IMG/VR virus record: IMGVR_UViG_2711768069_000001
Direction: 5' to 3' (one strand)
Length of the DNA stretch: 10,788 bases
Origin: a virus
Lineage: Monodnaviria > Loebvirae > Hofneiviricota > Faserviricetes > Tubulavirales > Inoviridae
Positions within the stretch are counted from its first letter, which is position 1; the number at the start of each line of letters is the position of its first letter. Shown one piece after another: positions 2,151 to 7,463 of the stretch. Made by a program: the position numbers and the translations under genes. A model generated the notes under the pieces. That model saw only the letters and a program-made list of their open reading frames with translations. It ran no database searches and had not been told where the DNA came from.

Positions 2151-3176
2151 TTAACCCCCAGTAAAATAGGTGACAATTTCACCATCAATGATTCCACTTA
2201 AAGTAAAACCTTCTCCGTCGAACTGATTTGCCGGTAGCGTTCTAAACCGACCATTGCTGTCTGTAAGAACAACCTTGCTGACATAATCTGATTTTAACTC
2301 CCCGGCAATACGCCAGCGCTTTGAGTACGGGGCATCAGGTTTCGCAATCTTTTCTGATGAAGGCAGTACAACCTCCGGTTCGGTATGTTTCGGCTCTGGT
2401 ACTGACTCTCCTCTAATATCCACCCAGACCGTTCTTATTGAATATATAGAAGCCAGTACAATAAATAATAAAAATGCAATTTTCACCCAAAGAAAGGCGG
2501 ATGAAAAAACGTTTTGTCTAGAGTCTGTTGTCGCTTCCATTCCGTTAGTGGTTTCATAAGATTTGTATAATTCAAAAACGGCTTTTTTGTACTGATAGTT
2601 ACGAGTACTGACTTTATTATTTTTGAATACTTTGGCACCAGAAAAAACATCGACACGATATGACTTTGATAGCCCCAAAGATTTTAGTTTGGTCATCCGG
2701 TATGTCGATTCAATACGCTCTTTAAGATACCGGGGTACACCATCTACACCCTGATTGATGATGACCAAATCACATGATACCCCACTAACAGCATGTGTCA
2801 TATGACGGTGCATTGAAATAAATCTTTTATGTGCCTCAGATAGTTTTGAGTCCGATGGCCATATTGACCATAATTCATCAAGACAAATCAGATCACCATA
2901 TTCACAAAATGCTGCTTTTTGTTCTGAAGATTCATCATCAGAGTAAAAAGGGAAGAAATCATCCTTTAATATTTCATCCGTCGATGCGAAAACAACACGA
3001 CCAGGCTGCTTAGTCTTGAATTTAGAACGACAATACTCATGTATTTTCTCTTCATTTATCCCTTTGATATTGGTGATTACACGGCGGCCTGCTGAAACCG
3101 CAGGGATAATAACACTGTAAACAACCTCGTATGTTTTACCGCTCCCCATCACACCCATATACAATGATACAGCCAT
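2151..3176 (-). CDS. gI: Filamentous-phage assembly ATPase pI (Zot-like), 341 aa
   Basis: N-terminus MAVSLYMGVMGSGKT resembles M13 pI MAVYFVTGKLGSGKT (Walker A). Internal hydrophobic segment. AGGA Shine-Dalgarno. Sits between the gVI-like and gIV genes. Confidence 0.9.
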   Translation of the reverse strand: MAVSLYMGVMGSGKTYEVVYSVIIPAVSAGRRVITNIKGINEEKIHEYCRSKFKTKQPGRVVFASTDEILKDDFFPFYSDDESSEQKAAFCEYGDLICLDELWSIWPSDSKLSEAHKRFISMHRHMTHAVSGVSCDLVIINQGVDGVPRYLKERIESTYRMTKLKSLGLSKSYRVDVFSGAKVFKNNKVSTRNYQYKKAVFELYKSYETTNGMEATTDSRQNVFSSAFLWVKIAFLLFIVLASIYSIRTVWVDIRGESVPEPKHTEPEVVLPSSEKIAKPDAPYSKRWRIAGELKSDYVSKVVLTDSNGRFRTLPANQFDGEGFTLSGIIDGEIVTYFTGG

Positions 3177-3180
3177 AAAA

Positions 3181-3468
3181 TTATCCTATTACCGGAATTC
3201 GACGAATAATAAAGCGAGTCACAAAAGCTGAAAGTATTATGTTAATCCCATCTATAACTTTAAAAACAGAGAAGAAATATTTCAGGCTATCTGGAATACT
3301 TGAAATTAACGCAAGAAGTGGGAGTTGGCGATTAACCATATCGAGAATAAGCGGCACGAATTCCTGCACAATAAAATACAATGCAAAAAACACCGTAAAC
3401 TTCACAATAACTGAGCGCAATAAAAACCCAAGAACGCCATATAAAACAGAGGTCATGATGCCAAACAT
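3181..3468 (-). CDS. gVI: Minor coat protein pVI-like, 95 aa, hydrophobic
   Basis: Small, strongly hydrophobic protein between gIII and gI, the pVI position in Ff. Call is positional plus composition. Confidence 0.65.
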   Translation of the reverse strand: MFGIMTSVLYGVLGFLLRSVIVKFTVFFALYFIVQEFVPLILDMVNRQLPLLALISSIPDSLKYFFSVFKVIDGINIILSAFVTRFIIRRIPVIG

Positions 3469-3477
3469 AAATCACCT

Positions 3478-4743
3478 TTATGCAGAAAGGATAATTCTGA
3501 ACGCTGCTATTGAGTAAATGAACAGAAAAATAACACCAATCATCGCAGCGTTATTATTTAATAATGTACAATGTGTTTCTAACTTATATTGTCCGTTAAA
3601 AACATCCAGTACAGGTTTTGGACACTCCGCATATTTAATTCTTTCGCTTTCTGCATTAAGTGCATCGGCTGAATCTTCAAAGGGGTTGAATGATAATAAT
3701 GGAGATAAAATTTCAGTACCTGCAGGTATATTTTCCAGTTCAGGCGGCCCAATACCAGGATCATCACCAAGATTAACCTGTTCTCCTGTCGATGGATTGG
3801 TTGGTGTTGTCCCTGTTGTGTCAGCAGGTAGTGTAAAATCGGGTTTGTCTGACGGTTTGAGAAAGTCAGATACAGCGGGCTTTGCAGCACCAGTTGAAGC
3901 AGTTACATCACGCGCTGTCACTGGTCTGGTGTGGTCGTATGCAAAACCAGAATACCCTGCTTCGGAGGCTGCTTTTTGCCATGCATTATTTACAACATCA
4001 GAAATAACTTCTGGCGAAAGATCTGTCTGCATTTCCGTATCTGAAATGCTATTAATAGCATCCTGTACGCTAACGGTTTTAATTACTTCATTACTACCCG
4101 GCACATAATCAGGCTGACATGTAGGCATAACCTTATTTGTACCGCAGGAAACAAGGTTTGCAGTTCGTGATGCCCAAAGCTGTGTTTTAGATGAATCAAT
4201 ATAAAATTTGATGGTTCTTAAATCAGACCTTGTCGGGTCTGCATTATATTGCTCAACTATGTATGTCTGACAGAACGTCGGATTATGCTGGCATATCGAC
4301 TGAGCTCCCTCAGTTGCTGTAACATAGCTTTCTGCGCCAATATTCCAGTAAAACCCTTTAACACCCTGCTCTCCCGTTATTTCTTTTACTTTGATTTGTA
4401 CGGAGTCCTCAGTTTCAATTAGCCATGCCACCGCACCGGAAGCGGCAAGAGCTATAAGCGTACCGCGGCTTAACAAAGCCCCTCTGAGTCCAACTGATAA
4501 CCACGAACGACCAGAGACACCTGCAACGGTATAAGCTTTCGAACCTGAAGCGGTAGAATTTAGATAACCTGAAATACCTTTTAATGTTCCGTAGTATCGA
4601 GGATCATTCGCTGAGAAACCACGCTGTGTAATTTTGTTTTTAATGGTTCCTGAAATGGTCTGATTAATAACAGCTGCGTTCTCTGCACTGTATGAATAAA
4701 AGCTAATGATAGATAACAACAATGCAATTAAAAGAGTTTTCAT
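3478..4743 (-). CDS. gIII: Adsorption/minor coat protein pIII-like, 421 aa
   Basis: Signal peptide MKTLLIALLLSIISFYSYSAEN resembles M13 pIII MKKLLFAIPLVVPFYSHSAET. Pro/Thr-rich linker and C-terminal hydrophobic anchor. AGGAGG Shine-Dalgarno. Size and position match pIII. Confidence 0.85.
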   Translation of the reverse strand: MKTLLIALLLSIISFYSYSAENAAVINQTISGTIKNKITQRGFSANDPRYYGTLKGISGYLNSTASGSKAYTVAGVSGRSWLSVGLRGALLSRGTLIALAASGAVAWLIETEDSVQIKVKEITGEQGVKGFYWNIGAESYVTATEGAQSICQHNPTFCQTYIVEQYNADPTRSDLRTIKFYIDSSKTQLWASRTANLVSCGTNKVMPTCQPDYVPGSNEVIKTVSVQDAINSISDTEMQTDLSPEVISDVVNNAWQKAASEAGYSGFAYDHTRPVTARDVTASTGAAKPAVSDFLKPSDKPDFTLPADTTGTTPTNPSTGEQVNLGDDPGIGPPELENIPAGTEILSPLLSFNPFEDSADALNAESERIKYAECPKPVLDVFNGQYKLETHCTLLNNNAAMIGVIFLFIYSIAAFRIILSA

Positions 4744-5317: not shown

Positions 5318-5605
5318 TTATTTAGTCTGTTCTTTATTTTCCTGATATGGAATCAGAACGATTCTTCCTACCCGTAATTTCTGGAAATCACCGACGTAAA
5401 TACTGGATGGATGTAATGTATATAATCCCGCCGGGTATGGTGCCTGACCCGCGTCAAGATTCAACTTGAAGAGTTGTGGATAATCCTGGCCAAGAAAAAT
5501 ATATGCAGACTGCTCATTAATTGTATACGCCTGCCCGGTCGACTTCGACACGCCAGAACGCGTATCGGCAATGGCCTGAGACTGTTTAATTTCAATCTTA
5601 ATCAT
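5318..5605 (-). CDS. gV: ssDNA-binding protein gVp (gene V), 95 aa
   Basis: Strong similarity over most of its length to recalled M13 gVp: MIKIEIKQSQA..TRSGVS..NEQ..YP.L.K..LD.GQ..Y..GLYT.H.SS..VG.F. GAGGA Shine-Dalgarno. Confidence 0.92.
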   Translation of the reverse strand: MIKIEIKQSQAIADTRSGVSKSTGQAYTINEQSAYIFLGQDYPQLFKLNLDAGQAPYPAGLYTLHPSSIYVGDFQKLRVGRIVLIPYQENKEQTK

Positions 5606-5617
5606 TTAAATATCCTC

Positions 5618-6733
5618 TTATGCAACATGCAAATAACGTGGTTTCACATACCATGATGGAATAAAGCATTCACTTACTGATACTTCTCTCACTTTCTTAA
5701 CAATAACGGGGCTAAATTTGGAAATATTACATCGCTGAGCAATGTCAATACCTATTTTTCTAAGCCTGGCACGATGGGTTTGCACCTGTGTTTTAGAAAA
5801 ATCAAATGAGTGACCGTGCATCCACTGGATAGCATACATCGCAGTGGTATTCGCTGATCGAGTTGAGTCAACAATGCCTTCACTGATTAAATGTTCACTA
5901 ATCGTTTCAAAATCCATCGACGTCACCATAAGCTTTTTATCAAGAGCTAAAAAATCATCATGTAAATTATTGAGTATTGAATAGTCGGAAAGCCCCCAGT
6001 AAATAAGATGGTTACGTTGCAGATACCGGGATTTAAGTTTTTGCTCAAATCTGACTACGCCCTGTTCCTGACAGAAATCAATAATCTTTTTGATGTATGA
6101 AACTTCAGCTGATGAATCCCCGAATTTATTCTTTATTTTATTAAGGGAGTGAAGCTTAATTTCATGTGCTTTATTATATACAGTCGGATAAATGAGCAAG
6201 GCGTTTCCTTTTTTGGATAGCCAGTCAACTGATTTACCGTTGCTGTGTAATCGCGGCTCACTATTGCGATACCGTAATGTTGAAAGGCCCGATATATAGT
6301 CATCTACATTATCTGCTCCGACTGTTCGGTTGGATGTAATGTGAATTTCACGAATACATGCGCCATCAGTAACCGTTCCGGCCTTTTCAGTTTCACTTGC
6401 CTGTCTCTGCCACAATTTCGTACATTTTGTGAATTCCGGCAGACCAAGGTCATTCAGGATCCGGTTGTATACCTGCACACAGGCATCAACAGAAGTGTGA
6501 CCAAACAAATTGTCCAGTCTGTTCCATCGGGATGGATTTCCCGACATTTTCAGAATCGAACCTTTAATCGATATCGAAACCTGATCGCAAAAAGATCCTT
6601 TATGTTGAAACACAGGCTGATTCAGTGAACCGGCCTCCCCTGTTTCAAGCTGAATGCGCTGATAAGCCACTTCACCCAGGATAGGAAGCTGGTAACCAAA
6701 GTCCTGTTCGATGGTAAGCCAGTCAAAAAACAT
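5618..6733 (-). CDS. gII: Rolling-circle replication initiator pII-like, 371 aa from ATG at 6733 (track ORF starts at a TTG at 6817)
   Basis: Large ORF directly upstream of gV as in Ff, divergent from the repressor. GGGAGA Shine-Dalgarno before the 6733 ATG. Assignment rests mainly on synteny and size. Confidence 0.75.
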   Translation of the reverse strand: MFFDWLTIEQDFGYQLPILGEVAYQRIQLETGEAGSLNQPVFQHKGSFCDQVSISIKGSILKMSGNPSRWNRLDNLFGHTSVDACVQVYNRILNDLGLPEFTKCTKLWQRQASETEKAGTVTDGACIREIHITSNRTVGADNVDDYISGLSTLRYRNSEPRLHSNGKSVDWLSKKGNALLIYPTVYNKAHEIKLHSLNKIKNKFGDSSAEVSYIKKIIDFCQEQGVVRFEQKLKSRYLQRNHLIYWGLSDYSILNNLHDDFLALDKKLMVTSMDFETISEHLISEGIVDSTRSANTTAMYAIQWMHGHSFDFSKTQVQTHRARLRKIGIDIAQRCNISKFSPVIVKKVREVSVSECFIPSWYVKPRYLHVA

Positions 6734-6883
6734 GTGTCTCCCGGAATTGACGCGCAAGGGTCTAAACTGATCTTTAACGGTGTCAGTTATACTAAATTGG
6801 AGAGATCTCAGTGTCAATATAATTGATACCGTAAAATGTCAAAACTGACCCTCGGTGTCAGCATGCTAAAAACAGGAGGTAGA

Positions 6884-7369
6884 ATGAATGCCTGTATGAA
6901 TAAAACAGAGAGTTCACTGGTAATGGCAGCAGACAAAGCATGCGCAGAAAGGATCAAACAATCGATTCTTCAGAACTTCACGTACGATGATATTGAAAAT
7001 GAAACCGGGATCAGTGTCAGTACATTGAAACGCCTGGCATCTGGTGACCGTGAACCGAAACTCATCGAAATTCGACAGATTGCAAAAGCTACAGGAAGGA
7101 ATCCGGTTTGGTTGGCGTTTGGAAACGACGCAGGTTATGAAATTGAAACCGTGTCCGCAGATATGAAATTAGTTGAGCCAACAGCCAGGTACGAAATTAA
7201 AGGAGCTACAGATAGCTCAGCCGATCATGAAGTAAAGATCAGGGTCATCGCTGCGATAAAAGACATGCGTTTGGAAGATGTTGTTTTTATTGAAAGAATG
7301 ACAGAGTTACTCAATCTCCAGAATACAATTCAGAACATTTCTGGACGAAAAATGAAGCCGCCAAGATGA
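6884..7369 (+). CDS. Phage HTH transcriptional regulator, putative lysogeny repressor, 161 aa from ATG at 6884 (track ORF starts at 6836)
   Basis: HTH-like segment ETGISVSTLKRLASG near the N-terminus. Divergent from the replication gene, as rstR is in CTXphi. AGGAGG Shine-Dalgarno 4 nt before the 6884 ATG; start remains uncertain. Confidence 0.6.
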   Translation: MNACMNKTESSLVMAADKACAERIKQSILQNFTYDDIENETGISVSTLKRLASGDREPKLIEIRQIAKATGRNPVWLAFGNDAGYEIETVSADMKLVEPTARYEIKGATDSSADHEVKIRVIAAIKDMRLEDVVFIERMTELLNLQNTIQNISGRKMKPPR

Positions 7370-7376
7370 TAACGTG

Positions 7377-7441
7377 CCCCGGGAAACCGGGGTAAAGTTC
7401 GGGTGTCACAGAACCCCGAACCGCTTCGCGGTACAAATTTT
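7377..7441 (+). terminator. Three GC-rich stem-loops between repressor and cargo gene A; last one followed by a T-run; possible terminator or attenuator
   Basis: Stem-loops read directly: CCCCGG-GAAA-CCGGGG (7377-7392), GTTCGGG-N11-CCCGAAC (7397-7421), ACCGC-TTC-GCGGT (7420-7432) then ACAAATTTT. Hairpins 2 and 3 share bases 7420-7421, so they are mutually exclusive. Confidence 0.3.
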
Positions 7442-7463
7442 ACACACAGCAGAGGAAGGCGGT

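Follow-up and report, generated by a model that had tools for sequence, protein, structure and literature searches.

A cluster of three short hairpins at positions 7375-7431 of the window (the whole 10,788-nt stretch of DNA analysed here) is very probably the core of a plus-strand, rolling-circle replication origin of a filamentous phage, in which the replication initiator, Rep, nicks within the loop of the middle hairpin, H2. The element is about 57 nt long and accompanies one family of filamentous-phage replication genes (Pfam G2P, the Ff gene II family). Its hairpins are most likely an ordinary, previously unlabelled phage part instead of a switch dedicated to controlling the cargo beyond it. 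This gives a testable origin and a predicted nick site, unlabelled in the records examined, for a widespread lineage that includes phage If1, dif-integrating enterobacterial prophages, and phages of Alteromonas, Vibrio and many metagenomes; among the papers searched, none contains the element's sequence.

The window is an integrated filamentous (inovirus) prophage, identified from its open reading frames (ORFs) and from the annotation of a near-identical E. coli locus, a sister prophage. On the − strand it encodes the pIV secretin (938-2197), pI/Zot (2151-3176), pVI (3181-3468), a pIII-like protein (3478-4743), the G5P single-strand-binding protein (5318-5605) and Rep (5618-6733); because the phage genes are on this strand, the packaged (viral) strand is the window's − strand. 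Rep, assigned to the Ff gene II family of initiators by its Pfam matches (G2P_X_C, 6.6e-26; the G2P N-terminal domain Phage_CRI, 9.7e-8) and annotated in the sister prophage as a phage/plasmid replication protein, is the protein expected to nick H2. Divergent from rep, on the + strand, is an Xre-type helix-turn-helix (HTH) repressor-like gene (6836-7369; Pfam HTH_3, 5.7e-7, and annotation), for which a start at 6884, preceded by AGGAGG, is more likely than the one at 6836. The hairpins follow its stop at 7369. A spacer (7432-7463, + strand) then contains the point at which identity to sister prophages breaks, a run of four T's and the ribosome-binding site of gene A (GAGGAAGG, 7452-7459), and leads into a cargo slot (7464-9028) in which ORF calling found four co-oriented + strand ORFs: gene A (7464-7850, with its ATG at 7464), 7860-8129, 8129-8608 and 8639-9028. 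A HigA-family antitoxin gene lies in the left part of the prophage (164-430).

The intergenic region between rep and the repressor gene (6780-6880) carries four (G)TGTCA repeats, three of them exact GTGTCA, together with a strong promoter-like site on the − strand (6817-6789, TTGACA-17-TAGTAT) and a + strand TATAAT at 6819-6824; it looks like a divergent switch with operators. We dropped the idea that the GTGTCA repeats share a protein site with the H2 loop (GGTGTCACAG), as the repeats are unconserved in relatives.

Three adjoining GC-rich stem-loops between the repressor stop and the gene A ATG, as the original prediction had described, are present in our folds and are backed by covariation. 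H1 (7375-7394) has, as read on the + strand, a CCCCGG/CCGGGG stem with additional G.T and T-A pairs and a GAAA loop. H2 (7397-7421) reads GTTCGGG-GTTCTGTGACA-CCCGAAC on the viral strand, with an 11-nt loop. H3 (7421-7431) reads CCGC/TTC/GCGG on the + strand and CCGC-GAA-GCGG on the viral strand, where it forms a G-N-A triloop of the d(GCGNAGC) type. All three were seen both in the + strand RNA fold and in − strand DNA folds, with a single-sequence folding signal that is marginal (z −1.8 for RNA; z −2.2 for − strand DNA). It is the comparative data, unlike single-sequence folding, that lead us to regard the hairpins as secure.

The element recurs in diverse filamentous phages and beyond. Copies 93-98% identical to it occur in the 'major intergenic region' of If1, in Alteromonas phage phiAFP1 and in a 7.4-kb circular E. 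coli replicative form, with the same polarity relative to rep in all three. A megablast search with 6700-8200 against complete E. coli genomes matched the phage part to about 7433-7437, beyond which the cargo differs; a separate piece of about 70 nt (7381-7451) matched in 659 complete E. coli genomes, and the element is also present, again at 93-98% identity, in 439 plasmid records. Scanning with the exact H2 pattern recovered 29 inovirus-size viral contigs and 26 genome contigs, the latter from Enterobacterales, Vibrio, Salinivibrio, Aeromonadaceae, Neptuniibacter and Cellvibrionaceae. H2 was identical in all 47 distinct copies, a figure to be read in light of the copies having been gathered by the exact H2 pattern; the family was likewise collected with patterns anchored on the H2 loop itself (GTNACACCC), which inflates apparent loop conservation.

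H1 varies in sequence across these copies while its pairing is kept. It forms a stem of 4-10 bp in 42 of the 47 copies, 38 of these with a 4-nt loop, despite 23 distinct 5' arms; the copies that fail to pair are mostly truncated at the junction with an insertion sequence (IS). Six of its seven pairs show changes on both sides, with 87.7% of cells paired and 72 doubly changed, and the covariation score of 0.240 compares with 0.101 in shuffles and was reached by none of 500 of them; slid registers all scored far lower. The H2 stem changes in the same manner across Rep homologs, where at least six fully complementary variants (GTTCGGG/CCCGAAC, GTTGGGG/CCCCAAC, GTTTGGG/CCCAAAC, GTCCGGG/CCCGGAC, GTGTGGG/CCCACAC and GGTGGGGG/CCCCCACC) enclose a loop near the consensus GTTCTGTNACA; in this wider set, too, a CTTT linker and a variable H1 come after H2. 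With the stems of both H1 and H2 covarying across the family, the hairpin structure is, as far as comparative evidence can indicate, under selection. H3 is an accessory part of the origin, restricted to a subset of the family: its viral-strand loop may be GAA, GCA, GGA or GTA, the middle base being free, and its stem covaries once, to CCC/GGG, and it is missing in L004, L024, L026, L042, L046, L048, L062 and most loci of the fuzzy-match Rep-linked set. We also tried to pick the functional strand by loop chemistry and by the balance of G.T and C.A exceptions, and rejected this approach as its signals contradict one another: H1 has its GAAA loop on the non-viral strand and H3 its GNA loop on the viral one, and the H1 exceptions, G.T and C.A, are found in both orientations.

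In phages the element travels with rep. At every pattern-found locus with a detectable Rep homolog (34-100% identity) rep starts downstream of the element, and the polarity is the same throughout, whatever is found between the two: an Xre repressor gene, a small ORF (Arc-like or other), or none, as in L042 and L062, where the element is 40-55 nt from the rep start with no gene between. The reverse test gave the same association. We fetched 80 viral loci by Rep alignment and scored the 63 with at least 900 nt upstream; 61 of these carry an H2-type hairpin on the rep-sense strand, at a median of 417 nt upstream, and just one H2-type match fell elsewhere. L146 holds a degenerate H2 copy that was recovered by fuzzy matching only. 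The module is kept beside the same rep family in about a hundred other phage contexts, whatever the cargo downstream.

Within this association, the loop of H2 follows Rep. Loop GTTCTGTGACA pairs with Rep proteins at 52-100% identity in Enterobacterales, Alteromonas, Neptuniibacter and Aeromonadaceae, and loop TTCCTGTTACA with Rep proteins at 34-42% identity in Vibrio, Salinivibrio and Cellvibrionaceae. By these sequence comparisons the loop variant tracks the Rep clade across host orders, not the host, which argues for recognition by Rep and not by a host primase or polymerase. One contig (IMGVR_UViG_2695420578; L017 and L148) has two distinct H2-type hairpins, GGTTCGGG-TTCCTGTTACA and GGTTGGGG-TTACTGTTACA, and may contain two origins or two adjoining elements.

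The H2 loop also resembles a known nick site. Both it (GTTCTGTGACA) and the gene II nick-site loop of M13/f1 (GTTCTTTAATA) have 11 nt, and 8 of the 11 positions are identical. In M13 the plus origin consists of stem GAGTCCAC, loop GTTCTTTAATA, stem GTGGACTC, a TT spacer and the inverted repeat GTTCCAAACTGGAAC; the viral strand of the window has stem TTCGGG, loop GTTCTGTGACA, stem CCCGAA, a CTTTA spacer and the inverted repeat CCCCGGTTTCCCGGGG. In the f1 origin, gene II protein nicks TT/AA in the loop of the first of two loop-forming regions (PMC11765958). Modelling on the f1 site GTTCTTT/AATA, we predict a Rep nick at GTTCTGT/GACA in the − strand, where the complements of 7408 and 7407 meet. 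H1, the second inverted repeat, lies 5 nt 3' of H2 on the viral strand; by analogy it would be the counterpart of the second loop of f1 (A2, the beta/gamma repeats), and we predict that Rep binds there, making it a candidate binding or specificity site.

Several other features are shared with the Ff phages f1, M13 and fd. The initiators are members of one protein family, marked by the N- and C-terminal G2P domains of Pfam; the viral strand has the origin upstream of the gene for the initiator; and the nick palindrome is followed by a short inverted repeat and then by A/T-rich sequence. The two nonetheless differ in their stem sequences, which are unrelated, and in the spacer to the second repeat, 5 nt here and 2 nt in Ff. 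Part of the window's family has the GNA mini-hairpin H3 as an extra, 5' of the nick hairpin; the family usually has a divergent regulator gene between origin and rep; and the window's origin abuts a cargo slot and a Xer-dependent attP, where that of Ff abuts the packaging signal and minus origin.

Homology with the Ff phages suggests the following course of replication. Rep would bind at two places, the inverted repeat of H1 and the palindrome of H2, on either the double-stranded replicative form or a tandem prophage, and would nick the viral strand within the 11-nt H2 loop, at the predicted GTTCTGT/GACA. Primed by the free 3' end, synthesis would run leftward across the repressor gene and rep and on through the structural genes, and a second cut at the same site would release one genome length of single strand, to be closed into a circle.

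The original prediction took the hairpins for a leaky terminator or attenuator in messenger RNA, coupling cargo expression to the lysogenic state. A transcript running from the repressor gene would indeed meet them before gene A and, like those of Rho-independent terminators and attenuators, they are GC-rich hairpins between two co-oriented genes. The statement that no obvious promoter precedes gene A agrees with our consensus scan, which found no promoter-like site in the 31 nt between H3 and the gene A ribosome-binding site; this silence is weak evidence, because the promoter of the repressor gene itself also escapes the scan. Many relatives have a co-oriented ORF that begins 10-160 nt (median 46.5) past H2, although the survey behind this was mechanical, and is noisy and weak as evidence. 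The T-run, however, amounts to four T's (7438-7441) beginning six bases past the H3 stem, and is absent in most relatives, whose bases after H3 are variable and mostly A-rich (GCAAA, CGAAAA or TCAAAA in most). The window thus differs from Rho-independent terminators and attenuators in that no U-tract adjoins any of its stems; nor did a scan of the + strand from 6600 to 9300 find a terminator-like site, or a search of the whole window against Rfam 15 (E up to 1) give a match within 7370-7463.

An attenuator would also be expected to switch between structures, and two of the hairpins had been described as mutually exclusive. H2 and H3 share only base C7421; the one real competition in the RNA fold is that H3, with a probability of 0.14, is outcompeted by pairing of 7420-7426 (ACCGCUU) with AAGGCGGU at 7457-7463, the end of the gene A ribosome-binding site and the spacer before the start codon. 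The pairing of a hairpin arm with a ribosome-binding site speaks for regulation, but it cannot be conserved because its partner is cargo-specific sequence; it may be chance or a cargo-specific translational feature. An alternative pairing between H1 and H2, when forced, reaches −21.0 against −34.3 kcal/mol, a cost of 13 kcal/mol, and no conserved alternative of this kind is possible because the 3' arm of H1 varies. Further, the module is retained where the gene upstream is an unrelated one or is missing, and where the cargo is unrelated; unlike a terminator's hairpins, those of the window are conserved with the replication gene of the other strand and not with the genes flanking them; and the H2 loop is homologous to the Ff nick site. 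We therefore regard a leaky terminator or attenuator as very unlikely.

On the plus-origin reading, the structures exist because this is a replication origin, and any effect on cargo transcription would be secondary. Since the origin sits past the 3' end of the repressor gene, a repressor transcript must cross it to reach the cargo, and since the origin has no canonical terminator, co-transcription of repressor and cargo is likely. Read-through, the other component of the original prediction, is plausible and not contradicted by the sequence, with no terminator-like site and a short gap to the gene A ribosome-binding site; co-transcription would plausibly be a by-product of the layout instead of the purpose of the hairpins. 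The conserved 'structured leader' before cargo and defence-like genes, in these phages and on IncF plasmids, is accordingly not to be read as an RNA regulator.

Could the cluster, or part of it, instead be the complementary (minus) strand origin, an ssi signal on the packaged strand? In that case it would be read by a primase or RNA polymerase of the host, which would convert the incoming single strand to double-stranded DNA. The hairpins are compact and stable on the viral strand, the viral-strand H2 loop contains CTG, and the element is also found on conjugative plasmids, which likewise enter cells single-stranded; H3, moreover, is a GNA mini-hairpin of the kind found in G4 and phiX174 origins. 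The matches in If1 and conjugative plasmids suggested a G4-type primase origin in particular, a candidate that we rejected as the G4 origin sequence has no resemblance to the element: G4 oric has three stem-loops with a CTG just 3' of stem-loop I, and no CTG follows the 3'-most viral-strand hairpin here. Against a minus origin of any type, the loop variant goes with the Rep clade across host orders, the H2 loop resembles the plus-strand nick loop of Ff and not its minus origin, and plasmid copies are often truncated in H1 at the IS junction. Literature searches on ssi signals and minus origins returned nothing usable. A minus-strand origin appears improbable to us as the identity of the cluster; parts of the cluster could serve as one, or as a packaging signal, alongside the plus origin.

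The packaging alternative concerns H1 and comes from Xanthomonas phage phiLf. The phiLf origin has two adjacent stem-loops, of which the one beside the nick hairpin has a GCGNAGC triloop, and a GC-rich hairpin of 20-26 nt directly after the origin stem-loops, SL4, is the packaging signal (bioRxiv 10.1101/2023.12.30.573655). In phiLf and phiLf-UK, as in the window, a nick hairpin, a GCGNAGC hairpin and a GC-rich hairpin thus form a row of consecutive short stem-loops, and H1, likewise GC-rich and of similar size, keeps its structure while its sequence shifts between phages. The order of GNA and nick hairpins is, however, reversed in the window, and the recognition sequence differs (CTTG in phiLf); in this comparison the function of the window's element is deduced from its sequence. 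We noticed no sequence resemblance to the phiLf consensus, and the second loop of f1, which binds gene II protein, is an equally good analogy for H1. That H1 is a packaging signal beside the origin is, in our judgement, unlikely.

The position of the proposed plus origin is like that in CTXphi. There, too, ori(+) (Ig-1) lies directly past the 3' end of a divergent repressor gene (rstR), comprises several hairpins, one of which the initiator nicks in its apical loop, and is near a folded single-strand attP used by XerCD (PMC4439123, PMC8265649); it is used from tandem prophages (PMC4439123, PMC8265649). Ig-1 differs from the window's origin in its length of 167 bp, its requirement for HU, and its candidate nick hairpin, which in a computed fold has the loop CTAGTATT. 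Comparing Ig-1 with the element gave no homology beyond short motifs. We considered and rejected homology of the two, as a flanking 28-mer and a TGTCACAG motif are all that they have in common and the candidate nick hairpin differs. Separately, V. cholerae O139 sequence AF416590 (L005) contains at 1880-2060 a Vibrio-type origin copy with about 30 nt of CTCGCTAGCGCTCAAACACTGGCGCGCTACG on each side; in CTXphi CTCGCTAGCGCTCAAACACTGGCGCGCTACG comes after rstR at the start of Ig-1, which suggests that two different filamentous elements adjoin at this locus or have formed a hybrid there.

The far end of the cargo slot is marked by a second structured element (9031-9123, − strand). Two inverted dif-like arms (9031-9051 and 9096-9123), found by arm-only patterns, surround a GC hairpin (9059-9089); the viral strand of the whole forms a forked hairpin that has a 6-nt bubble (dG −32.9, z −8.3), and the − strand has an exact XerC arm, GGTGCGCATAATG, at 9111-9123. 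From its sequence it looks like a CTXphi-type single-strand attP, forming the right prophage end next to hipA. A search of the window for dif found none within 3 mismatches. The opposite prophage end has a perfect dif in the sister strain 6EVA (L001), and therefore the phage integrated at dif. The host genes hipA and hipB come after the dif-like structure, the hipBA toxin-antitoxin locus directly adjoining the attP end (9200-10788). Rfam's sole weak matches in the window, miRNA-like, fall on the attP hairpin (9041-9106).

The cargo slot is hence the interval between ori(+) and attP, with variable content. Among three near-identical phages (those of the window, L001 and L030) each has a cargo unrelated to the other two, and the break points coincide exactly with the outer edges of the origin and the attP; on the origin side, identity of the window to sister prophages stops at 7433-7437. 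The window's own cargo had no match in 5,426 complete E. coli genomes. Gene A matches no Pfam family, and the product of the second cargo ORF (7860-8129), a zinc-ribbon protein, has a weak match (2.9e-6) to the candidate defence family PDC-M14A. Defining the slot in this way aids the location of accessory genes and the design of origin vectors and satellite assays.

The same two elements bracket cargo on plasmids. Alongside the 439 plasmid records with the origin element, 495 have the first attP arm and hairpin, mostly on conjugative IncF plasmids. At plasmid loci L003 (4001-5105), L008, L010 (5001-5890) and L011 variable cargo lies between origin and attP elements, consisting of defence-like genes, for an STM4504/PDC-S32 family protein or a TIR-domain protein, or of genes for hypothetical proteins. 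The plasmid loci examined have no rep gene nearby and usually lack the second attP arm; such copies are either relics or have another function. We tentatively propose, as a rather doubtful extension of the origin reading, that the origin and the folded attP delimit an exchangeable cargo cassette, one able to pass from filamentous phages to large conjugative plasmids and back. In a stronger version, the Rep of a resident phage may nick the plasmid copies, mobilising the cassette in single-stranded form for XerCD to insert; in another, transcription from the repressor gene across the origin may both express the cargo and silence the origin in lysogens.

A transposase gene annotated as ISNCY, present as diverged copies (73-82% nucleotide identity), ends about 30 nt before the origin at several loci (L010, 3572-4972; L003, 2488-3877, frameshifted; and the left flanks of L008, L011, L059 and L067). 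The shared flank of the IS, ending in TTCAATGATATTATATACAAAGG, abuts or truncates H1; either the IS targets the H1 hairpin, or IS, origin and cargo travel together as a single unit.

Some members of the family have unusual arrangements. In If1 (U02303; L002) the 1.2-kb 'major intergenic region' (563-1768) holds ORFs on the complementary strand: one encoding an IS200/IS605 TnpA-like protein (771-1214), one of 64-67 aa that ends just before the origin element (1280-1483), and one of 62 aa just past it (1594-1782). Tandem full-length prophages occur at L007, L027 and L044. Salinivibrio sp. ES.052 (NZ_FSRI01000003; L046, L053 and L054) has a tandem array with a period of 3,649 nt, whose unit seems limited to rep, g5p, an Xre-type regulator and the origin, and which resembles an RS1-like satellite of a filamentous phage.
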